Origin: Gammaproteobacteria bacterium
Lineage (GTDB): Bacteria; Pseudomonadota; Gammaproteobacteria; UBA4575
Reading direction: 5' to 3'
Assembly (NCBI GenBank): GCA_965221955.1
Contig: CBDCTA010000028.1
Coordinates: 64,001 to 128,000 of the forward strand
Length of the DNA: 64,000 nucleotides
In this document: positions 7,585 to 25,462 of the stretch, one piece after another
Layout of the letters: each line of letters begins with the position of its first letter
How positions within the stretch are numbered: the first letter of the stretch is position 1
The notes under the pieces: generated by a model
Databases searched by the model: none
What the model was told of the DNA's origin: nothing
The model's input: only the letters and a program-made list of their open reading frames with translations
Made by a program: the position numbers and the translations under genes

Positions 7585-8013
7585 ATGCAAACTATTAAAC
7601 AGCTTTTAGAAAACAAAGGTAAAGAGTTATTCACCATAAACCCTAATGACTCCGTCTATGATGCTATTAAATCTATGGCAGACCATCATATCGGTTCACT
7701 AGTGGTTATGGATAATGAAAAATTAGTTGGAATAATTACTGAAAGAGACTACTCCAGAAATGTAATATTAAAAGGAAAATCTTCGATTAACACCTTGGTT
7801 AAAGATATCATGACGAAAAATGTCTTATGCACCACTCCCGATAAAACTATCGAGGAAGCGATGGCATTAATGACTGAAAAACGTGTAAGACATTTACCTG
7901 TTGTAGAGAATAAAAATGTGCTCGGTCTGATTTCTATTGGCGACCTAGTGAAATCGATTATATCAGAACAAAAACACATAATAGAACAACTAGAACACTA
8001 TATTAATGGTTAA
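7585..8013 (+). CDS. CBS-pair domain protein
   Basis: LVGIITERD, RVRHLPVV, GLISIGDLVK; SD AAGGAG. Confidence 0.92.
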   Translation: MQTIKQLLENKGKELFTINPNDSVYDAIKSMADHHIGSLVVMDNEKLVGIITERDYSRNVILKGKSSINTLVKDIMTKNVLCTTPDKTIEEAMALMTEKRVRHLPVVENKNVLGLISIGDLVKSIISEQKHIIEQLEHYING

Positions 8014-8019
8014 CAATAC

Positions 8020-8586
8020 ATGCTTAGAGCAAGTGATGAAACCATTACATACCAATCTATCTTAAAGTTTTGGTTTTCTGAACCAGTAAATAAACTCTGG
8101 TTTAAATCTACACCTGAATTTGATGATGAAATATTAATCAAATTCCATTCTTTGTGGTTAGATGCTAAAAAAGAAAAACTTATAAATTGGGAAAAAACAG
8201 CGCAAGGCTGTTTAGCATTAACAATAGTGCTGGATCAATTTCCTCTCAATATGTTTCGTGGCACTGCTAAAAGCTTCTCAACAGAACAGCACGCAATTCG
8301 TATATCACGTCAAGCAATTGCAAATAAATTTGATAAGAAGCTTCCTTTATATCAGCGATCATTCCTTTATATGCCACTGATGCACAGCGAAAATATTAAC
8401 GATCAAAATCTTTCGGTTGAACTATTTACAGATAGTGGACTAAAAAATAACTTACGGTTCGCAAAACATCATCGCGATATTATTAAGGAATATGGACGTT
8501 TCCCACACCGAAATTCGATTTTAGGCCGTAACAGTACAGAGAAAGAACTTGAATATTTGAATTCCCCGCAAGCGTTTACAGGGTAG
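8020..8586 (+). CDS. DUF924 family protein
   Basis: LKFWF, LDQFPLNMFRG, FLYMPLMHSE, GRFPHRN..LGR. Confidence 0.92.
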   Translation: MLRASDETITYQSILKFWFSEPVNKLWFKSTPEFDDEILIKFHSLWLDAKKEKLINWEKTAQGCLALTIVLDQFPLNMFRGTAKSFSTEQHAIRISRQAIANKFDKKLPLYQRSFLYMPLMHSENINDQNLSVELFTDSGLKNNLRFAKHHRDIIKEYGRFPHRNSILGRNSTEKELEYLNSPQAFTG

Positions 8587-8596
8587 TTTTTTCACA

Positions 8597-9340
8597 ATGG
8601 CAAATAAATGGACGATTAACTGGCAAGACTCATTGATAGCCTCTTTATTAATCGTCTCTTTTGTGAGTTTATTTTTTGCAGCTCCAATTCCTCAAGATCT
8701 CTCATATCATGTGTTTGCAGACAATCGAAGCATACTAGGTGTGAACAATTTCTTTGATGTAGCTTCAAACTTACCCTTCTTATTCGTAGGCACTATAGGA
8801 CTAATTAGTATTTACAAAAATTGGGGAATAACTAGTTCGTGGAGCTGGTTGGTCTTATTTTTATCAGTCTTCTTAGTTGCATTTGGTTCTTCTTACTATC
8901 ACCTAAACCCTGAAAATAGAACTTTAACTTGGGATCGATTACCGATGGCAATTGGATTTATGGCCTTGTTTGTAATTACGATAGCAGATTATATAAGCCA
9001 AAAGCTCGAAAAATGGCTATTAATACCAATGTGTTTAGTTGGAATTATTTCAGTTTTATATTGGCATTTCACAGATGACTTAAGAATTTATGCATGGGTG
9101 CAGTTTGTATCGATGGCTTTGCTATTGATAATCATTTTTATTTATAAACCACACCATTTACAAACTAAGCACCTTCTTTATGCATTCTTCTTTTACATTT
9201 TATCTAAATTAGCTGAGCACTTTGATAAACAAATATTTGAGTTACTTGATCAAATTGTAAGCGGCCACACACTCAAACATTTGCTTGCTGCAATGGCCAC
9301 ATTTTTTTTCTATCTATTACTAATTCGCAGGAAAACCTAA
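8597..9340 (+). CDS. Ceramidase-like (CREST) membrane protein
   Basis: PQDLSYH..ADNR, SNLPF, GSSYYH, WDRLPM, SGHTLKH; multiple TM helices. Confidence 0.8.
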   Translation: MANKWTINWQDSLIASLLIVSFVSLFFAAPIPQDLSYHVFADNRSILGVNNFFDVASNLPFLFVGTIGLISIYKNWGITSSWSWLVLFLSVFLVAFGSSYYHLNPENRTLTWDRLPMAIGFMALFVITIADYISQKLEKWLLIPMCLVGIISVLYWHFTDDLRIYAWVQFVSMALLLIIIFIYKPHHLQTKHLLYAFFFYILSKLAEHFDKQIFELLDQIVSGHTLKHLLAAMATFFFYLLLIRRKT

Positions 9341-9366
9341 TTCGATATTTTATATAATAATCGAAC

Positions 9367-10272
9367 ATGGAACACTCGCATCAGCATCCCACTCCTAAAA
9401 ACTATAACTTGGCCTTTGCAATTGGCACTGCTTTAAATGTTACTTTTGTAGTGGTAGAAGCTATTTTTGGATTTTTATCAAATTCATTAGCACTCATAGC
9501 AGATGCTGGGCATAACCTAGGCGATGTACTCGCGCTTTTACTATCTTGGGGTGCAACCTACTTAGCGCAACGTAAGCCAACACGTACCAAAACCTATGGC
9601 TTACGAAGAGGTACAATTTTGGCTGCATTTATCAGCAGCTTGATATTACTCATGACCATGAGCATCGTCGCATGGGAAGCAATAGGCAGATTCACATCAC
9701 CATTAGAAGTGAACTCAATGACCATTATCATCGTTGCAGCAATTGGCGTGGTAATTAATACTGCTACGGCTTTACTTTTCTTATCCAGTCAACATGAAGA
9801 CCTAAATATCAGGGCTGCATTTATACATATGACGGCTGATGCTGGAGTATCGCTAGGTGTTGTACTTGGAGGAATTGCAATTTTATACACAAGTTTATTT
9901 TGGATCGATCCTGCTGTGAGTTTGATCATTGTTGTTGTCATTATCATCAGCACCTGGGGTGTATTTAGAGATTCATTCAACCTTGCGCTGGATGGAGTTC
10001 CCAAAGGCATTGATATCGATGAAGTAGAAAAGTTTATCCTACAACAAGAAGGTGTAAGCGCAGTGCATGACTTGCATATTTGGGCCATGAGTACAACACA
10101 AGTTGCACTCACCACGCACCTCGTACGTGATTCACATAAACTTGATGATCAATTTGTCCATCAACTAAGTAAAGCGCTGCATGATAAGTTCGGAATCATC
10201 CACCCAACTATACAAATAGAGTCAGGAAACCAAGCACAACTCTGTGATCAGGCTCATCATGACAGTATTTAA
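9367..10272 (+). CDS. Cation diffusion facilitator (CzcD/ZitB-like)
   Basis: SLALIADAGHNLGD, NIRAAFIHMTAD, VHDLHIW, HPTIQIE. Confidence 0.93.
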   Translation: MEHSHQHPTPKNYNLAFAIGTALNVTFVVVEAIFGFLSNSLALIADAGHNLGDVLALLLSWGATYLAQRKPTRTKTYGLRRGTILAAFISSLILLMTMSIVAWEAIGRFTSPLEVNSMTIIIVAAIGVVINTATALLFLSSQHEDLNIRAAFIHMTADAGVSLGVVLGGIAILYTSLFWIDPAVSLIIVVVIIISTWGVFRDSFNLALDGVPKGIDIDEVEKFILQQEGVSAVHDLHIWAMSTTQVALTTHLVRDSHKLDDQFVHQLSKALHDKFGIIHPTIQIESGNQAQLCDQAHHDSI

Positions 10273-15657: not shown

Positions 15658-16254
15658 CTAATTGTGTTCGATTAAATTTTTGAATTCGCTTATCTGTGAT
15701 TTATGTAAAATATGAGGGTTTATTTTAGCCTTTTTTATAAACTTATTAAATTTAGCATCGACACAATTACTACTAGTTAAGCTTTCTATATTCTTTTCTT
15801 CTATTACTTTTTCACTAGATTTAACGAGTATTAAATTTTTCAACTCAAGCTCTTGTGCAAGCCAAACTGCCAAGCTGTCTGATGTTACATTCCATGATTT
15901 TTCTATTTCATTATTATCTCGCAACATCTCATAAGGTTCCCAAATCGCAATCTTTGAATCTTTCCAGGCACTGTAAATTTCTTCTTTCGAGTTTGCCTTG
16001 ATCATGCTTGAACAGAGAGATACCAGCAAAGTGCCGTATTGCTGCATCGCCATTAGTGCCATGTTGTGAGCCTGTTCTTGAGGTAAACTAAATTTCTCAT
16101 CTGCCTGCCTAACCTGATCAGCAAATGGGCCCCCACCAGGAACAATAATTACATTTTTATTTGCAAAATGATCGATTGCTTTCAGCCACTCTACTAGATA
16201 TTTACTCCCATACAAACTACCCCCTATTTTTATTCCCCAAGCATCCATGAACAC
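15658..16254 (-). CDS. Amino-acid-kinase family protein (Orf21, MfnE-like methanofuran kinase)
   Basis: IKIGGSL, IVPGGGPFADQVR, SWNVTSDS, LVKS. Confidence 0.82.
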   Translation of the reverse strand: MFMDAWGIKIGGSLYGSKYLVEWLKAIDHFANKNVIIVPGGGPFADQVRQADEKFSLPQEQAHNMALMAMQQYGTLLVSLCSSMIKANSKEEIYSAWKDSKIAIWEPYEMLRDNNEIEKSWNVTSDSLAVWLAQELELKNLILVKSSEKVIEEKNIESLTSSNCVDAKFNKFIKKAKINPHILHKSQISEFKNLIEHN

Positions 16255-17675: not shown

Positions 17676-18725
17676 TTAACTGTTCATCGCTAGACATGCA
17701 ACAGCCGCCGCAGGCCCACAATCACCAACCCCAAATCCTTCACCGTCAGAATCGATAGTAAAAAGACTTTCATAATCAACATATTCACGTCCAAGTTGCG
17801 AAGCGACATCTTTCACCAAGAAACGCCCAACCCCTGCTCCTACTACAGGTGCATCAAGAGATATTTGTTTTTGCATAAGCTGATGACGACATGCATCTTT
17901 AATCATCTGTACTTGCATGCTGCGCACTTGCTTTGCGACTGCATTCCAAATATCTAATTCAGATGAATCTGCATCATTAGCAAACATTCTGGCAAGTCGC
18001 TTAACACTGCTCAGGCAATCTTTTGCACGACTATCCAGTGTTTCACCTACATCTACATATTCTTCTAATTCACCTGTTATACGATAAACATCCGCAGTAT
18101 TAGAAAAATACTCATTAATTACAGGCACGCTTTGTGTTTTAACAATCGCACTTTTACAAATGGCAAAAATGGGGGTCCTAACCACACCACAATAAACAAG
18201 TTCTTTTGCAATAAGCCTTTGCTCATCTGTATAGCCATTGTAAATTACTTTACCATCTTTAATAGGAATAATATCTGTTGTAGTACTACCAATGTCTATA
18301 AACAAAGCATGTTGAAGTTTTTCAGCTGTGTAACAAGCACTGGCTAACCAGTTCGCAGAAGCTACTTTTTTATATTCAACGATAGCTCGTTCAGCATTTA
18401 TGAAACCTAGCTCACCGGCATAGTAGAACACTTTATCTTCAGATAGTTTTGCGTTTAATTCATTAATGATAGAAATTGTACCCTGCTCACGGTTTTCGAA
18501 GTAGTCAACTAATTCTCCCGTCATCGTGACTGCATGTTTACTATGAGATAAATTTATTCTTTCATGAACAGTTTCAATACACATTCTTAGTTTATCTATA
18601 CCTTTCCATAAAGGGCATGCAAGCTGAAGAACTTCTATAATCGCTTGCTTATTTGCTCGCACAATTTTTACATGCGCACCACCTATATCCCAGCCAACCA
18701 TATTTTGCGTATTATTAAGCGACAC
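17676..18725 (-). CDS. Hydantoinase/oxoprolinase-family H4MPT-linked protein (Orf9, MfnF-like)
   Basis: GWDIGGAHVK, TMTGEL.D.F, ASANW, DIGSTTTD, GVVRTP. Confidence 0.87.
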   Translation of the reverse strand: MSLNNTQNMVGWDIGGAHVKIVRANKQAIIEVLQLACPLWKGIDKLRMCIETVHERINLSHSKHAVTMTGELVDYFENREQGTISIINELNAKLSEDKVFYYAGELGFINAERAIVEYKKVASANWLASACYTAEKLQHALFIDIGSTTTDIIPIKDGKVIYNGYTDEQRLIAKELVYCGVVRTPIFAICKSAIVKTQSVPVINEYFSNTADVYRITGELEEYVDVGETLDSRAKDCLSSVKRLARMFANDADSSELDIWNAVAKQVRSMQVQMIKDACRHQLMQKQISLDAPVVGAGVGRFLVKDVASQLGREYVDYESLFTIDSDGEGFGVGDCGPAAAVACLAMNS

Positions 18726-19710
18726 GCTCTTCTCTTACATCTACAATAACGCTACTGCCACTTTTTAATTCAATATTCGGCAATCTTTTATTCATAAACG
18801 TTTTCAAAATAAGCTCTGCTGGATTACAACCTAAAGCTGAATGAAGTCCGGCATAAGATGTAGTCAACCTTGGGTTGATTTCAACCAGAAACGTTTCATC
18901 TTCAGTAATTAAGATGTCGATACCTACATAGCCCCTCAAACCTGGTAAGGCTTTTACAAGCTGATTACTAAAGCCGATAAATTGTTCTCGTTGCAAGCTA
19001 TTTACTACACATTGATTTAATTCAAAGTAATTATTTTCTTTGGCTAATATCTGTTTATTTGCACAAAGCAAAATACATTCCCCTTCCCAACATAACAAAC
19101 TTAAACTTGCATTCAATCCTGTTAAATATGGTTGAGCTAGATAATTTTTTTTCTCAGATTGGTTAATATATTTATCAGGATCATCTGCTTGATCTAGCAA
19201 ATGCAGATTCTCACAGCCCACCCCACTTCTAGGCTTAATCATGATCTTATCGGCTTGGATAGAAGATATATCTTCTAAGCTAAAACTAGGAACCTGCGCA
19301 ATATTATGTATTTGCAAAAATTTATAGGTTTTCAACTTATCACTAGTTAAAGAGATGCTGTCTAAAGAACTATTTAAAAGTAAAAATTCTCGTTGGGAAT
19401 ACTTCCTACATAAGTCAGTTAAAATATTGTCAGACTCAGGCGCAATAATTAATAAGGCATCAATTTCATGTGCAATATTTTCTATTATTTGTTCTACATT
19501 TAACTCGGTGCTCACAATATATTCATGAATATTCTGCTCACTACTTGCAAGTCGACAATCTTTCAGAGCGCTTACTTGTATATTTTCAATTTTTGCAAAA
19601 TCATCTGTTATAGCATTTAGCATTAACTCGCCCTCTTTCACCAAAGAAGCCGGCAATGGCTCACCTAACATACCACCACCAGTGATATACTCAAAAATTA
19701 AAATGTTCAT
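18715..19710 (-). CDS. ATP-grasp ligase (Orf1, MfnD-like tyramine-glutamate ligase)
   Basis: MNILIFEYITGGG, EGELML, IIAPE, GYVGID, EINPRLTTSY; start moved to the ATG at 19710. Confidence 0.85.
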   Translation of the reverse strand: MNILIFEYITGGGMLGEPLPASLVKEGELMLNAITDDFAKIENIQVSALKDCRLASSEQNIHEYIVSTELNVEQIIENIAHEIDALLIIAPESDNILTDLCRKYSQREFLLLNSSLDSISLTSDKLKTYKFLQIHNIAQVPSFSLEDISSIQADKIMIKPRSGVGCENLHLLDQADDPDKYINQSEKKNYLAQPYLTGLNASLSLLCWEGECILLCANKQILAKENNYFELNQCVVNSLQREQFIGFSNQLVKALPGLRGYVGIDILITEDETFLVEINPRLTTSYAGLHSALGCNPAELILKTFMNKRLPNIELKSGSSVIVDVREERVA

Positions 19711-19719
19711 AATATACAA

Positions 19720-20430
19720 ATGAAGATAATTCCCGTTATAGACCTCTATAAAGGTCTTGTCGTTCATGCTGTAGCAGGAAATAGAAAAAATTATAAAACA
19801 ATTGACTCCAAGATTTGCTCATCAGCAAATCCATTTGATGTAGTAGAGGGCTATTTAGACTTATTTAGTTTCAAATCAATATATATCGCTGACTTAGATG
19901 CTCTTGAGCAACAAGGTGACAATACGAAAATCATTAAATTATTATGTAATAAGTATCCTAATATAGAAGTATGGTTAGATTGTGGAACATCAACAGAAAA
20001 ATATTTACAACAAGAAATCTACAACAACTTACGTTTAATTTTATCCTCTGAATCAATTACCACTACATCAGTCTTCACCACTTTACTTGATCAATATTCT
20101 GAGCATCGTTTTATTTTATCTTTAGACTACAAAGCTAACGAATTACTCGGAACGAATGACTTATTTAATACTAAAAAATACTGGCCCAAAGATCTAATTG
20201 TACTAAATTTAAATAATGTTGGTGTTAAGCAAGGGTTCAAATACCCACTTCAACTTAAGCAGCACAACCTTATTAACGATTTTAATGTTTATTATGGTGG
20301 CGGAATTCGAAATACAGACGATATTGAAAAGTTAGCTTCAATTGGGTTTTCAGGCGCACTTATTTCGACTGCTTTGCATTCTCAAACCATCTCAAGCACT
20401 GAAATCCTTTCTCTCAACCAATTACTTTAA
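19720..20430 (+). CDS. HisA/HisF-related TIM barrel protein (Orf17)
   Basis: MKIIPVIDL..G.VVHA..G.R..Y, YIADLDA, WLDCG, GGGIR, STALH. Confidence 0.87.
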   Translation: MKIIPVIDLYKGLVVHAVAGNRKNYKTIDSKICSSANPFDVVEGYLDLFSFKSIYIADLDALEQQGDNTKIIKLLCNKYPNIEVWLDCGTSTEKYLQQEIYNNLRLILSSESITTTSVFTTLLDQYSEHRFILSLDYKANELLGTNDLFNTKKYWPKDLIVLNLNNVGVKQGFKYPLQLKQHNLINDFNVYYGGGIRNTDDIEKLASIGFSGALISTALHSQTISSTEILSLNQLL

Positions 20431-21634
20431 GCTTACGCTGTATACTTTGGTCTAAAAGATTGCGTAACTGTGACTTGCCCAATTCATCCGAAGAAAAATG
20501 CTTTAATAAAGCACTACTGCCTTTCTTCTGCAGCTCATCTAAACTTGGCCCTACAAAACAACAATGCGATTGACTGGTTTCATAGATTTGTAATTCCGTT
20601 AAACCAGGAAGATATTCAATAAGCCTCTCCCAAATAAAAATGCTTAATAGTTCTGTACTAGAGCGCCAAGATAGCTCAGCAGATACATAGTTAAGATTAT
20701 GATGGTCTAGTTGCTCAATAATTTTTTCCTTCGCAATGCGTTTTAAATATCCATAATCCAGCACAAACCCAGTCAAAGGATCAATTTGATCTTTGACTTT
20801 CACGTTCATAGTGTATCTACCACCATGAAGATTTACACATTTATCTGGATGATCCGTTATAAAGTGCGCTGAATCAAATACTAGCTCTTTGGACACGAGT
20901 GCTTGTTCGTATTGCCCAAAAAACCGCTCTGATGCACTAGGAATATCTTTTAAGTACTCATCCAAAAGCACTAACAAACGCGTTGTGTCTTCTAATGTCT
21001 CGCAACGCATTAACTGTCCAGTCTGATGCTCGGATGCTAACAGTGCTTTTAAACGAACTTGATGATTGCTTGCCAATTCTTTCTCAATGCGTTCAGCGTC
21101 CTCTTTATTTGGGAAGTCAATAAACAAATAAGCTGAGTGTAATTCACCTACATGCGCAATCAATACGGCTAATTGTTGTAAAAACGATGTGCTCGAGCTC
21201 GATATAATCCTGGGAGGAAGAAATACGGTTGGAATTTTTAGAGTATTTCTAGCTATCACTCGATGACTATCATTCTCATAAAAGTATTCTTGTTTGAATT
21301 GAAAACCCATCGATTGCAATACATTTTGGTACCACAATAATTGTTCTAATCTACGAACACCTAAAGCAATATAGGTAAAATCACCTTCTTGTTGAATCGC
21401 ATCCGCCATATATAAGCCATTCAATAAGTCTTGTGCTTGTGAACTAGGGGGTAAGCTTGGCTTAGCATATGCTGCAACATCATCTTGCTGATTAATTTGA
21501 TCAGAATTTAAAAGCAAGTCTAACGGCATATGATGACGTAAGGCATACTCTTGCAAGGTTAAACCACAACAAGCATATAAATGCTCATTGCTAATTTGGT
21601 TACCAAGCTCTTTGCCGCATTCCCTACATTGCAT
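20414..21634 (-). CDS. Multidomain protein: N-terminal Zn finger, LAGLIDADG-like middle region, C-terminal QueD/6-pyruvoyl-tetrahydropterin synthase-like domain
   Basis: CRECGK..HLYACCGLTLQEY; LNGLYMADA and LAVLIAHVG helices; FDSAH..KCVNLHG, GFVLDY, LDHHNLN, STE, YET. The QueD domain is confident, the N-terminal calls are tentative. Confidence 0.75.
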   Translation of the reverse strand: MQCRECGKELGNQISNEHLYACCGLTLQEYALRHHMPLDLLLNSDQINQQDDVAAYAKPSLPPSSQAQDLLNGLYMADAIQQEGDFTYIALGVRRLEQLLWYQNVLQSMGFQFKQEYFYENDSHRVIARNTLKIPTVFLPPRIISSSSTSFLQQLAVLIAHVGELHSAYLFIDFPNKEDAERIEKELASNHQVRLKALLASEHQTGQLMRCETLEDTTRLLVLLDEYLKDIPSASERFFGQYEQALVSKELVFDSAHFITDHPDKCVNLHGGRYTMNVKVKDQIDPLTGFVLDYGYLKRIAKEKIIEQLDHHNLNYVSAELSWRSSTELLSIFIWERLIEYLPGLTELQIYETSQSHCCFVGPSLDELQKKGSSALLKHFSSDELGKSQLRNLLDQSIQRKLKVIG

Positions 21635-21688
21635 GTTGCTATTACATCCAGGTTAGATCTTGTACATTATAGAGAAAAACACACGTGC

Positions 21689-21720
21689 AAAAAAATGCCC
21701 CGAACATATGTCGGGGCATT
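21689..21720 (-). terminator. Intrinsic terminator after fae
   Basis: 10-bp stem AATGCCCCGA/TCGGGGCATT with a T-run on the minus strand. Confidence 0.85.
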
Positions 21721-21745: not shown

Positions 21746-22273
21746 TTAGAAACCTTTGAATGGGTGCTCTGCGCTGTCTTTTTGTGCAACAACAGTTGAA
21801 GCTTTTGGCTCGTCCTTAACAGCACGCTCTAATGCTTCTTTAGTTGCTTTGTAGTTATTTTCATAGATAGCTTCGTTGCTCTTGGCTTCCCAGTGAATGA
21901 AAACACCAACACAAACGTATACATCATCCGCTTCATCAGCTGGAATGGTGCCATCTTCAACACTATCCGCAACCGCTTTAGCAACCGCTGCTTGAGCTGG
22001 ACCAAACATTTGAACCGCTTGCTCAGCACCTTTGATGGTCACTTTATTGAACATCATAGTGTTAGGCTTACAAGGTAGATTTGGTGCAATTACAGCTAAT
22101 AAAGTTGAAAAGCCATCCTTGTTGTTCACCAAGCCATTACAAAAAGCAGTTTCAACAGCAGAACCACGAGGACCAACTAGTAAGTCGATATGCGCAATTT
22201 CTGCCATAGTGCCGGAAGGATCGTTATCATTAACGAGTGACTCTCCGACCATTACTTTATTAATTAATGCCAT
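21746..22273 (-). CDS. fae: Formaldehyde-activating enzyme
   Basis: [39 protein letters not shown]; SD AGGAG. Confidence 0.96.
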
Positions 22274-23300: not shown

Positions 23301-24533
23301 CTAGTTTTGAGAAAAAGCTAACACTTTCTTGATGGTAAGTCCTTGCACAAGAATTGAGAAAACTACAACAAAGTAAGTAATCACCAGCAAAGGTTCCCTT
23401 GCAGGCACAGCAGGGATAGAAAGTGCTAAAGCCACTGAAATGCCACCACGCAGCCCACCCCAAGTCAGAATAGTCACTGCATAAGGACTGAAAGTTCTAA
23501 ATTTTTTCATAATTTGTACAGGAATACCCACACAAATCCACCTGGATAACAAAACGATAGGAATAGCAACCAAGCCCGCTATCATAAATTGATTGGTAAA
23601 CGTTAAGATTAATAACTCCACACCAATTAATAAAAATAAGATCGCATTTAGAATCTCATCAATGAGCTCCCAAAAATCATCTAAGCGCTCACGTGTATTA
23701 TCTGACATCGCCAAAGTTCGGCCTTGGTTCCCAATGAATAAACCCGCGACTACAATGGCAATCGGTGCAGAGATGTGAATTGACTCCGCAAACGTATAAC
23801 CACCCGAAACTAATGCCAAGGTGATTAATGCTTCAACTTGATAATTATCAACCCCACGGAGCATGAAAAAACCTAGCAAACCTAACCCCAGACCAAAAAA
23901 CACGCCTCCCAATGCTTCAACAGCAAACAAATTAATTACATGCAACGCAGTCACCTCATCACCACCGGTTGCAATGCCTAATAGCACTAAGAAAACCACA
24001 ACGCCTACACCGTCATTAAACAATGATTCACCAGCAATTTTTGTCTCCAGCGTTTTTGGCGCACCTACTATTTTTAAAATACCCATCACTGCAATAGGAT
24101 CAGTTGGTGAAATTAATGCACCAAACACCAAACAATAAATATACGCAACCGGTATTCCTAACCATTGCATCACGTAATACATGATCGTTCCTATAATAAA
24201 AGTAGAACTAATCACACCCACTGTAGCGAGCGTTCCTATCACCCATTTTTGCTCGCGTAGATCATTTAAATTTACATGTAATGCACCCGCAAAAAGTAAA
24301 AAGCTTAACATTCCATGCAAAAGCGCTTCATTAAAATCAATACTTTTAACCAGCGCTGTCGCTTGTTCATCGAGTGAAATTCCAAATTCACCAAACAAAA
24401 TCAACGCAAGAGAAAACAACAAACTCAACAACATAATGCCAATAGTTGTTGGCAGTTTTATATATTTATAATTGATATATGCGAAGACTGCAGCTAAGCA
24501 GAGCAATAATGATACAATTTCAAATAAACTCAA
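23301..24533 (-). CDS. Na+/H+ antiporter (CPA1/NhaP family)
   Basis: FGALISPTDPIAV, GESLFNDG, WGGLRG; likely TTG start at 24533 overlapping the orf5 stop. Confidence 0.92.
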   Translation of the reverse strand: MSLFEIVSLLLCLAAVFAYINYKYIKLPTTIGIMLLSLLFSLALILFGEFGISLDEQATALVKSIDFNEALLHGMLSFLLFAGALHVNLNDLREQKWVIGTLATVGVISSTFIIGTIMYYVMQWLGIPVAYIYCLVFGALISPTDPIAVMGILKIVGAPKTLETKIAGESLFNDGVGVVVFLVLLGIATGGDEVTALHVINLFAVEALGGVFFGLGLGLLGFFMLRGVDNYQVEALITLALVSGGYTFAESIHISAPIAIVVAGLFIGNQGRTLAMSDNTRERLDDFWELIDEILNAILFLLIGVELLILTFTNQFMIAGLVAIPIVLLSRWICVGIPVQIMKKFRTFSPYAVTILTWGGLRGGISVALALSIPAVPAREPLLVITYFVVVFSILVQGLTIKKVLAFSQN

Positions 24534-25462
24534 CTTGCTACCGTTATTTTGGTTTGTTCTTGCATACAAGAAATAAAGTTATCGACAAGTTGATCAGCCA
24601 CAACGAGATTATTCACACTCTGCAAACCTTTCCAAGCTGGAATACTATTTACCTCAGTCACCCATAGTTTACCTTCTACGTCCTGCATAAGATCTACTCC
24701 AGCATAAAACATATTTACTGCTTGCACCGCATCTTTAGCAATCTTAGTAAACTGGTCATTTACAACTGCTGAAAAGCATTTCCCACCATTGGCTACATTA
24801 CTAATCCAATCAACCCCTTCTCTTTTCATTGCAGCCACCACTTGGTCGCCTATTACAAATACTCTCCAATCAAAAGCGTTTTCTTGCTCGGTTTGCCTGC
24901 TTGTTTGAATGAATCGTTGTAAATAATAAATCTTGTTATAAACCGTAAAATTCGTAATATCTTCCGCTTGACTAATCAGTTGCAGATTTTTGCCTTGTGA
25001 CCCAAATAAAGGCTTCGCGACCACTTTATTCCCCATTGCAAGCTCACGACGCACAAATGAGTAAGCTTGATGTACATCATTTCCAACCCATGTAGGTGGT
25101 GTAGCGATGCCTGCATGGTCCAACAAAAAACTTGTCATCCCTTTATCAACACTGCGCTCAATCGCTCTCACATTGTTGTAAACAAGAATTTTTAACTCCT
25201 GTAATGCATGCAATACATCAAGATAAAAAACAACCTCTTCTAACGTACCACCGGGAACACCACGCACAAATACACCATCCGGCAAGGCATCTTCAAAACC
25301 CGGAATGTGTAAGCTTTTATTTTTGCCTTCGCTATTGCTAAATTGAAAGTAACAATCCGTTAATGAAACATTTGTACACTTGTACCCCTTACGTTCAAAT
25401 GCTTCATGCAATTCTTTGCCATGCCAACCGGGGTCGTCGGTAATGATCGCTATATGACTCAT
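24530..25462 (-). CDS. RimK-family alpha-L-glutamate ligase (Orf5, MptN-like)
   Basis: GWHG, VRGVPGGTLE, VDKGMTS, KPLFGSQG, EVNSIPAW; start moved to MSHIAII at 25462. Confidence 0.88.
   Translation of the reverse strand: MSHIAIITDDPGWHGKELHEAFERKGYKCTNVSLTDCYFQFSNSEGKNKSLHIPGFEDALPDGVFVRGVPGGTLEEVVFYLDVLHALQELKILVYNNVRAIERSVDKGMTSFLLDHAGIATPPTWVGNDVHQAYSFVRRELAMGNKVVAKPLFGSQGKNLQLISQAEDITNFTVYNKIYYLQRFIQTSRQTEQENAFDWRVFVIGDQVVAAMKREGVDWISNVANGGKCFSAVVNDQFTKIAKDAVQAVNMFYAGVDLMQDVEGKLWVTEVNSIPAWKGLQSVNNLVVADQLVDNFISCMQEQTKITVAS

Follow-up and report, generated by a model that had tools for sequence, protein, structure and literature searches.

A zinc finger-LAGLIDADG-PTPS fusion behind fae in Gammaproteobacteria: a candidate pterin enzyme carrying a fossil homing endonuclease

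Enzymes of the PTPS/QueD family depend on a catalytic cysteine and Asp-His pair and on a glutamate that anchors the pterin. LAGLIDADG homing endonuclease folds can outlive their nuclease activity, as in WhiA, where a dead LAGLIDADG domain is joined to a C-terminal DNA-binding helix-turn-helix (HTH). Here, we analyze a gene whose predicted product combines both folds. It lies in a 64,000-nucleotide stretch of DNA from a gammaproteobacterium of the UBA4575 lineage (assembly GCA_965221955.1, contig CBDCTA010000028.1, positions 64,001 to 128,000), to which we refer as the window, and stands behind fae, the gene for formaldehyde-activating enzyme, in a cluster for tetrahydromethanopterin (H4MPT) and other one-carbon (C1) cofactors. 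In its QueD-like part, CxxxHGH, the signature motif of QueD according to PMC5041015, is replaced by CxxxHGG. In the main texts and the part of the older literature covered by our search, we found nothing linking LAGLIDADG with QueD, PTPS or methanopterin, and the fusion architecture appears undescribed in the literature found.

A sequence-only reading of the window had offered two interpretations: a DNA-binding, pterin-sensing regulator built on a domesticated homing endonuclease, or an altered pterin enzyme with a captured mobile domain. The second fits the evidence better than the first. We put at about even the chance that the protein is a working COG0720 pterin enzyme of a distinct 'HGG' subfamily, carrying an exapted fossil that consists of a nuclease-dead endonuclease and a zinc finger.

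Three-part architecture of the fusion protein

The open reading frame (ORF) and its parts are as follows.

20414..21634, minus strand: whole fusion ORF, ATG start, 406 amino acids (aa); zinc finger, degenerate LAGLIDADG domain, PTPS/QueD-like T-fold and C-terminal tail
21500..21634, minus strand: Ros/MucR-like C2HC zinc finger, aa 1-45, with C3, C6, H18, C22 and a GLTLQEYA helix
20906..21451, minus strand: degenerate, by prediction catalytically dead two-motif LAGLIDADG_2-type domain, aa 62-243, assigned from fold, clade profile and loss of the catalytic acids
20540..20905, minus strand: PTPS/QueD T-fold, aa 244-365, with C266-x3-H270-G-G272, D310-H311 and E352
20414..20539, minus strand: C-terminal helical tail, aa 366-406 plus stop, from the ORF and the model; 39% mean pairwise identity in the clade

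The sequence-only reading had the ORF and its length right, every residue that it named is in place (C3, C6, H18, C22/C23, LNGLYMADA at 71-79, LAVLIAHVG at 155-163 and CVNLHGG at 266-272), and its division into zinc finger, LAGLIDADG-like and QueD-like parts is borne out by Pfam, by the structure model and its fold matches, and by an N-terminal profile. The ATG start is sound, since homologs open with the same M-x-C-x-E-C. Our search with the fusion protein returned 503 homologs. The best 120 are, with few exceptions, similar in length, and public names for the family give '6-carboxytetrahydropterin synthase' only. A Pfam scan of the 406-aa protein reports PTPS (PF01242) alone, at aa 247-359 (E 6.5e-25, 87.9 bits against a cut-off of 22.4). 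An AlphaFold2 model of the full protein, built from 58 aligned homologs, is confident throughout, with a predicted local distance difference test score (pLDDT) of 93.9 and a predicted template modelling score (pTM) of 0.89. Complex prediction with two full-length copies (score 0.21, mark 0.42) gives no answer and points neither way.

The C-terminal third is a T-fold of the PTPS/QueD type: residues 243-363 of the model superpose on QueD (2oba) with Z 16.2 and a root-mean-square deviation of 1.0 over 118 residues, at 30-36% identity. Alignment to QueD structures sets KCvnLHGgry against KCgrLHGhsf, which agrees with the earlier claim of a QueD fold bearing CVNLHGG where CxxxHGH is canonical. Eight positions are invariant in 58 of 58 sequences (H257, C266, H270, D310, H311, N315, E328 and E352), among them the cysteine, the Asp-His pair (LDH) and the glutamate (YET) that the sequence-only reading listed as retained. 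With 70% mean pairwise identity, the PTPS domain is also the best conserved region of the clade. Position 272 is Gly in all 25 HGG-type sequences and His in all 90 HGH-type ones, and it does not change alone: G272, R273, Y294, W323, R324, S325 and T327 each recur in 20-25 of the 25 HGG-type sequences but in no more than 15 of the 90 HGH-type ones. Because it has a correlated signature of its own, the HGG active site looks like a remodelled site, not a decaying one.

At the other end of the protein, C3, C6 and H18 are invariant across 22 sequences and C22 is present in at least 90% of them. In a search of the PDB, the profile made from residues 1-50 matches Ros (2jsp) best (E 0.0043, profile positions 2-39). 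ROS_MUCR matches appear in 14 of 28 aligned relatives and in 7 of 10 distant relatives scanned singly; these seven are all under the Pfam cut-off, the best reaching 24.1 bits against 25.4, and the Pfam scan of the window protein itself gives no PF05443 match. These profiles indicate that the Ros/MucR resemblance, claimed in the sequence-only reading, is real but marginal. The zinc finger has 62% mean pairwise identity in the clade, and its net charge is -3 in the window protein and -1 to -7 in the clade (n=40), against an isoelectric point (pI) of about 8 or more in 13 of 15 members of a comparison group with an intact LAGLIDADG domain. Protein Atlas places the N-terminal part in its own family (0.84) and beside a LAGLIDADG_3 cluster (0.82), both values below 0.9 and to be taken as leads only.

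The middle of the protein models as a LAGLIDADG fold, as had been proposed for residues 60-240, with two alpha-beta-beta-alpha-beta-beta-alpha halves between aa 65 and 230. VIA-align matches the domain (about aa 62-243) to I-SceI, I-WcaI and PI-PfuI (Z 10.2), I-DmoI (9.6), WhiA (9.0) and the bI3 maturase (8.9), the I-SceI alignment spanning 177 residues, and Foldseek likewise finds I-SceI (E 1.9e-5) and WhiA (E 1.1e-5). The window protein has no PF03161 (LAGLIDADG_2) match at E up to 1, and its genome has none at E up to 0.01; LAGLIDADG_2 is matched by 10 of 28 aligned full-length relatives, and 9 of 10 distant relatives scanned singly score above its cut-off (40.8-105.2 bits against 25). A profile built only from aa 60-243 of 40 clade members finds Pfam-verified LAGLIDADG_2 regions in three such proteins (P0134, E 1.4e-18; P0139, 9.9e-10; P0135, 8e-9; E-values at Z = 1e6), and the homology of the middle domain is therefore independent of the PTPS domain. 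Profile and modelled fold together indicate that the middle domain is a true, degenerate LAGLIDADG_2 domain.

This domain is predicted to be dead as a nuclease. The canonical relatives' LLGDGY aligns with LYMADA of the window protein and their WYMDDG with LIAHVG, so that the catalytic columns hold A77 and H161/V162, and neither column has a conserved acid in the 40 clade members. On this alignment the window's clade has lost the catalytic acid of each motif. The sequence-only reading was right that LAVLIAHVG has lost its acidic residue, and wrong that LNGLYMADA has kept it: D78 lies one column past the catalytic Asp of motif 1, at a position that varies among D, N, Q, R and G in the clade. The clade has also lost 6 residues in the first beta-hairpin and about 15 residues ahead of motif 2. 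The net charge of the LAGLIDADG region is -7 in the window protein and -9 to +6 in the clade (n=40), against -2 to +14 in the intact group (n=15; pI 6.4-9.8), where it is positive in 13 of 15; over the DNA-contacting strand columns the mean net charge is -3 in the window protein, -0.7 in the clade and +3.7 in the intact group. Mean pairwise identity within the clade is 45% in the first LAGLIDADG half, 38% in the second and 34% in the linker.

These features bear directly on whether the protein could be a WhiA-like one-component regulator of the fae/H4MPT cluster, in which the dead endonuclease and the zinc finger would bind DNA (or RNA) and the T-fold would sense a pterin. WhiA is among the fold matches of the middle domain, the zinc finger resembles Ros/MucR and is strongly conserved, the enzyme part has lost one of its zinc ligands, a place after the fae terminator with a possible promoter of its own (described below) would suit a regulator made at low level, and loss of the gene in some relatives would be easily tolerated. 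The N-terminal regions are nonetheless acidic, down to the would-be DNA-binding strands, where 15 intact relatives are mostly basic; the hairpin deletion falls in the DNA-contacting sheet; there is no HTH of the WhiA kind; and HGG-type relatives adjoin QueE-like genes, as expected of enzymes. Moreover, the catalytic Cys, Asp-His pair and Glu are invariant, and a mere sensor need not keep them. The regulator proposed in the sequence-only reading gains no support from the acidic N-terminal regions, the hairpin deletion and the invariant enzyme residues, and we judge it unlikely.

Descent from endonuclease-QueD fusions

Among 271 proteins with a full PTPS domain, the long forms comprise 160 HGG and 18 HGH sequences and the short forms 59 HGH and 4 HGG sequences. 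To place the window protein, we inferred a rapid maximum-likelihood phylogeny from the PTPS domain, with 123 columns and the 125 rows left once sequences had been thinned at 70% identity; many of its forks are unresolved, it is rooted at the midpoint only, and its sole support measure is the Shimodaira-Hasegawa-like approximate likelihood ratio test (SH-aLRT). In this tree the window's clade (SH-aLRT 98) lies inside an HGG group (89), itself part of a larger LAGLIDADG-fusion clade (96) in which HGH members also occur. The HGG group also takes in fusions with an intact LAGLIDADG domain and two stand-alone HGG proteins, P0149 and P0155, that have no N-terminal module. Since the canonical motif cannot be regained from LYMADA, the direction of change runs from intact to degenerate. 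Tree and motifs indicate that the protein as a whole goes back to fusions in which QueD was joined to an intact homing endonuclease.

Intact fusions are found in two IMG/VR viral contigs. The first, L009 (37 kb), has genes for an intein-containing ribonucleotide reductase, a PD-(D/E)XK protein, glycosyltransferases, a DUF366 protein and a further PTPS; the other, L010 (131 kb), encodes Ku, a SIS-domain protein, a QueE-like radical SAM protein and a PD-(D/E)XK protein. On L009, the intact HGH-type LAGLIDADG-PTPS fusion (7977-9326) is followed by a stand-alone PTPS gene of 166 aa (9336-9836), and the intein-bearing reductase gene lies just upstream.

Intermediate forms, with an intact LAGLIDADG domain and HGG, also survive; P0139, from a contig of 45.6 kb, is an example. 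Metagenome contigs of 24-27% G+C carry HGG-type fusions whose motifs are intact or partly decayed; the metagenome scan gave three short fusion contigs (L169, L170 and L172) and a fourth, L171, that by its coordinates looks like L010 again. On L169 the fusion lies directly 5' of a QueE-like gene (28% identity to QueE of the window's genome, E 1e-25), on L172 it precedes ThyX, and on L170 (24% G+C) an intein end with LAGLIDADG_3 (3-470) lies immediately 5' of a decayed-endonuclease fusion (535-1602). The C-terminal extein on L170 resembles, by eye, the end of QueC. The QueE-like, intein and ThyX neighbours hint at a viral origin for the intermediate HGG fusions.

Other proteins pair a PTPS domain with nuclease-like or DNA-binding parts. 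P0297 has HTH-rich or HTH repeats, LAGLIDADG and PTPS; P0178 (291 aa) has, by eye, an HNH-like N-terminal part ahead of PTPS, which is the one domain Pfam reports. Given these two, endonuclease-QueD fusion seems to recur in 7-deazaguanine gene sets. We also considered a free-standing phage ancestor made of zinc finger and LAGLIDADG; the CxxC...H motif occurs in 0 of the 9 viral LAGLIDADG_2 ORFs examined, and we rejected this candidate.

The fae locus, distribution and queuosine

Three features flank or overlap the fusion gene in the window.

21746..22273, minus strand: fae (formaldehyde-activating enzyme; TIGR03126, 233.7 bits against a cut-off of 118), the conserved upstream neighbour
21689..21720, minus strand: terminator-like hairpin plus T-run between fae and the fusion ORF; 10-bp stem with 6 G-C pairs
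19720-20430, plus strand: HisA/HisF-related gene, convergent with the fusion; its 3' end overlaps the fusion's tail

The fusion gene does stand behind fae, as the sequence-only reading held. The hairpin 3' of fae, at 21694-21720, is palindromic and is listed by the scan on the plus strand; we read its minus-strand sequence directly. A TATAAT-like hexamer at 21666-21671, 32 bases 5' of the fusion ATG, was seen by eye only and is absent from the scan's list. Hairpin and putative promoter hexamer suggest that the fusion gene is expressed separately from fae, at a lower level. At its other end, the fusion gene overlaps the HisA/HisF-related gene tail to tail by 17 bases (20414-20430), and a convergent overlap of 7 to 25 bases between the two recurs across most related loci.

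Position and neighbourhood are widely shared. A scan with one genome per species gave 417 relatives, and the best 80 loci, on which neighbours were counted, are all from Gammaproteobacteria (uncultured Thiotrichales, Ca. Thiodiazotropha, Sedimenticola, Sedimenticolaceae, Chromatiales, Arenicellales, Thiogranum and Thiohalobacter). Across several orders, fae is directly upstream of the fusion in 71 of the 80, a fixed chromosomal position that shows no sign of mobility. The loci further share the HisA/HisF-related gene (69/80), pabB (67/80), a CitG-like gene (67/80), an ATP-grasp (MfnD-like) gene (66/80) and a TIGR03123/MfnF-like gene (63/80); in seven, pabB comes directly after the fusion. Contexts without fae exist: in L144 the fusion has pheT/MerR-like genes on one side and recJ on the other, and in L151 it follows an MTHFR-like gene. 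In fae-less contexts, a conserved protein of about 350 aa without a Pfam match is encoded before recJ, after the fusion in L144 (7285-8343) and after pabB in L105 (8611-9705).

In the window's cluster, three neighbours on the minus strand (15658-16254, 17676-18725 and 18715-19767) best match methanofuran families, namely an MfnE-like kinase, MfnF-like/TIGR03123 and an MfnD-like ATP-grasp protein, with only the TIGR03123 match exceeding its cut-off. In addition, the cluster probably contributes to the furan cofactor that belongs to the formyltransferase/hydrolase complex. A membrane protein gene (23301-24569, minus strand) that resembles, by eye, a cation/proton antiporter separates the CitG-like gene from the MptN-like one; with a counterpart in only 6 of the 80 related loci, it is a lineage-specific insertion in the cluster. 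A second fae paralog lies on another contig of the window's genome (G000:C22:63672-64166), and most relatives have two as well.

An even draw of the class (400 genomes, with G270 not scored) gives the association a denominator. Eighteen of the 400 carry the N-terminal module, always within a frame of 410-817 aa, and Fae is present in 14 of these 18 carriers and in 44 of the 382 genomes without the module. Four unpublished genomes, G062, G164, G318 and G330, are counted in these Fae figures, and all four are non-carriers. Within the window's family, Fae occurs in 18 of 18 relatives and the fusion in 12 of 18. The tie of the fusion to the H4MPT cluster, raised by the sequence-only reading, is strong, yet not strict in either direction: most carriers have Fae, some do not, and many Fae genomes have no fusion.

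A second question is whether the fusion might simply be the cell's QueD, making 6-carboxy-5,6,7,8-tetrahydropterin (CPH4) for queuosine, with the fae position a matter of history and the N-terminal module inert baggage. In the window's genome, which is 96.6% complete, queE-queC, tgt and folB are present and the fusion is the only PTPS-family gene. It is also the sole PTPS-family gene in nine further genomes (G010, G014, G339, G276, G075, G105, G171, G187 and G337); QueC was sought in seven of these, present in six and not found in G337. HGG relatives adjoin QueE-like genes, and queuosine is dispensable, which would fit the losses of the fusion gene described below. Three complete or near-complete relatives that lack the fusion (G001, G016 and G017), however, have no PTPS-family gene at all although their queE and queC are intact (without stops, QueE being 66-72% identical to that of the window's genome), and CPH4 must therefore come from elsewhere in this family. 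Eight of the 18 carriers in the class draw have three PTPS-family genes and all eight keep the fusion, which supports a role distinct from queuosine. The sequence-only reading had also raised the matter of a separate canonical queD: the window's genome has none, and in the three multi-gene carriers that were read, the strongest extra gene has CxxxHGH, adjoining a FolE2-like gene (by eye) in L254. Together with the fae synteny across several gammaproteobacterial orders and the clear constraint on the N-terminal module, these observations make the plain QueD explanation unlikely, if the least so of the alternatives.

We also asked whether the fusion corresponds to a short PTPS-like gene that adjoins afpA in the H4MPT islands of methylotrophs and which we take to be the one called 'orf20'. 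The island of Sedimenticola selenatireducens has the fusion plus a short PTPS-like gene of 165 aa with CENIHGH, which adjoins an afpA-like flavoprotein gene, a dihydropteroate-synthase-like gene and fhcA/B; of the species' extra PTPS-family genes, this short one is the weaker match. The gene order of the island agrees with orf19-orf20-afpA of Methylosinus, as given in PMC3615186, and a CExxHGH hybrid motif is described in PMC5041015. The short protein has only a weak match in the window's genome, to the fusion itself (E 0.001), and a search for an afpA-like gene came up empty in that genome and in 12 genus-mates. Because the two genes are separate in S. selenatireducens, we rejected the identification of the fusion with 'orf20'. 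Weak PTPS matches also fall within one frame of 320-334 aa each in S. selenatireducens (G031 C2:14844-15590) and in a member of Sedimenticolaceae (G033 C1:1064986-1065369); the G031 frame has two matches and looks like a two-domain PTPS, a further COG0720 paralog beside the fusion and the afpA-linked gene.

Proposed role and comparison with known systems

We propose that the window protein derives from a phage-type fusion in which an active LAGLIDADG endonuclease was joined to QueD. One branch would have lost the third zinc-ligand His (HGH to HGG) and acquired the correlated changes R273, Y294 and W323-R324-S325-x-T327. Among sulfur-oxidising and methylotrophic Gammaproteobacteria, a sub-branch would then have taken up its place behind fae, in the H4MPT/C1-cofactor cluster, where the endonuclease would have shed its catalytic acids, some loops and its positive charge. 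We infer that the T-fold has kept a QueD-like ability to bind and cleave a dihydroneopterin-type substrate, and that the dead endonuclease module is retained as a structural or partner-binding domain and not as a DNA reader. Such an enzyme may provide an accessory pterin supply for C1 cofactors and possibly, in streamlined genomes without another COG0720 gene, CPH4 for queuosine.

Several observations weigh against this proposal. The third zinc-ligand His is absent (G272), and the loss may have broken the metal site. The protein scores 72.1 against a cut-off of 89.25 on TIGR03367, the NCBIfam model for QueD, and is also below the cut-off of the NCBIfam PTPS model. The alignment behind the structure model takes in intact LAGLIDADG relatives. 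The strong conservation of the zinc finger (62% identity, with C3, C6 and H18 invariant) implies that the N-terminal module does something, which could be nucleic-acid binding; this conservation needs explaining and leaves the regulator a small chance. With regard to the C1 pathway, the class draw has 58 genomes with Fae, of which 44 lack the fusion, and 18 carriers, of which 4 lack Fae. Finally, there is no homolog in G001 (a single-contig, 100% complete genome of the same genus), G016 or G017, all of which keep fae. For G001 and G017, whose loci were compared, the cluster is otherwise collinear, with the HisA/HisF-related gene 70 and 161 bases from fae, respectively. There have been at least two losses of the fusion gene, in different genera, and given the clean absence in these three genomes, the fusion is not an essential step of H4MPT synthesis.

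Dispensability, the altered metal site, the tight cluster position and an N-terminal module that is conserved yet acidic would all suit a non-catalytic scaffold, in which the T-fold would hold H4MPT or a precursor and the dead endonuclease would dock on a partner enzyme of the cluster. However, the catalytic set is invariant apart from one His, no partner is identified, and the stand-alone HGG proteins P0149 and P0155 do without the N-terminal module; we regard the scaffold as the least probable of the explanations. We give a slender chance to a further idea: the fossil endonuclease would be reused for nucleic-acid or partner recognition in an enzyme-regulator hybrid that couples a pterin-binding T-fold to the control or assembly of C1 cofactors, and/or HGG would be a new catalytic variant of the T-fold in which Arg273/Arg324 and Tyr294 replace the lost His. 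The reading we prefer, a working pterin enzyme with a fossil endonuclease, stands ahead of these.

The family appears to preserve a stepwise record of a selfish element becoming part of a host protein, with the steps still coexisting: viral contigs with an active endonuclease joined to canonical QueD, fusions whose endonuclease looks active beside an altered metal site, and a dead endonuclease fixed in a core C1-metabolism cluster. Hosts of the clade include symbionts of lucinid clams (Ca. Thiodiazotropha), Sedimenticola and marine methylotroph-like Gammaproteobacteria. For several hundred proteins, the database name '6-carboxytetrahydropterin synthase' reflects the last third of the protein only. 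CxxxHGGR...Y...WRSxT defines an uncharacterised COG0720 subfamily, whose chemistry and pathway are open to standard pterin assays.

Compared with QueD/PTPS-I (COG0720; PDB 4ntk, 4ntm, 2oba), the fusion has the same T-fold, Cys, first two His, Asp-His pair and Glu. It differs in its length of 406 aa against about 120, more than threefold as the sequence-only reading had noted, in having CxxxHGG in place of CxxxHGH together with its own signature (R273, Y294 and WRSxT at 323-327), in falling below the TIGR03367 cut-off, and in not adjoining queC/queE. The short afpA-linked 'orf20'-type gene is likewise a COG0720 member within an H4MPT gene island, but it is short (165 aa), has CENIHGH, adjoins afpA and occurs together with the fusion in S. 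selenatireducens.

The N-terminal two thirds invite comparison with proteins that act on DNA. With I-SceI-type LAGLIDADG_2 enzymes (PF03161; PDB 1r7m, 6x1j) the fusion shares the monomeric two-motif fold and a homology supported by profiles; unlike them, it lacks both catalytic acids, has two deletions and an acidic domain, occupies a fixed chromosomal position and has no PF03161 match of its own. With Ros/MucR regulators (PF05443; PDB 2jsp) it shares a CxxC...H...(H/C) knuckle followed by a (G)LT..EY helix, whereas its zinc-finger region, at net -3, is without the basic residues expected of a DNA binder. WhiA (PDB 3hyi, 8dy7) was the precedent named in the sequence-only reading, and the parallel holds for a domesticated LAGLIDADG fold without nuclease residues (Z 9.0). 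It does not extend to the partner domain: the Pfam and NCBIfam scans and the model show no HTH family in the window protein, whose C-terminal partner is an enzyme fold, the PTPS T-fold, with a short tail, and whose extra domain is an N-terminal zinc finger. Beside WhiA, the fusion would represent a second kind of LAGLIDADG domestication, here joined to a metabolic enzyme.

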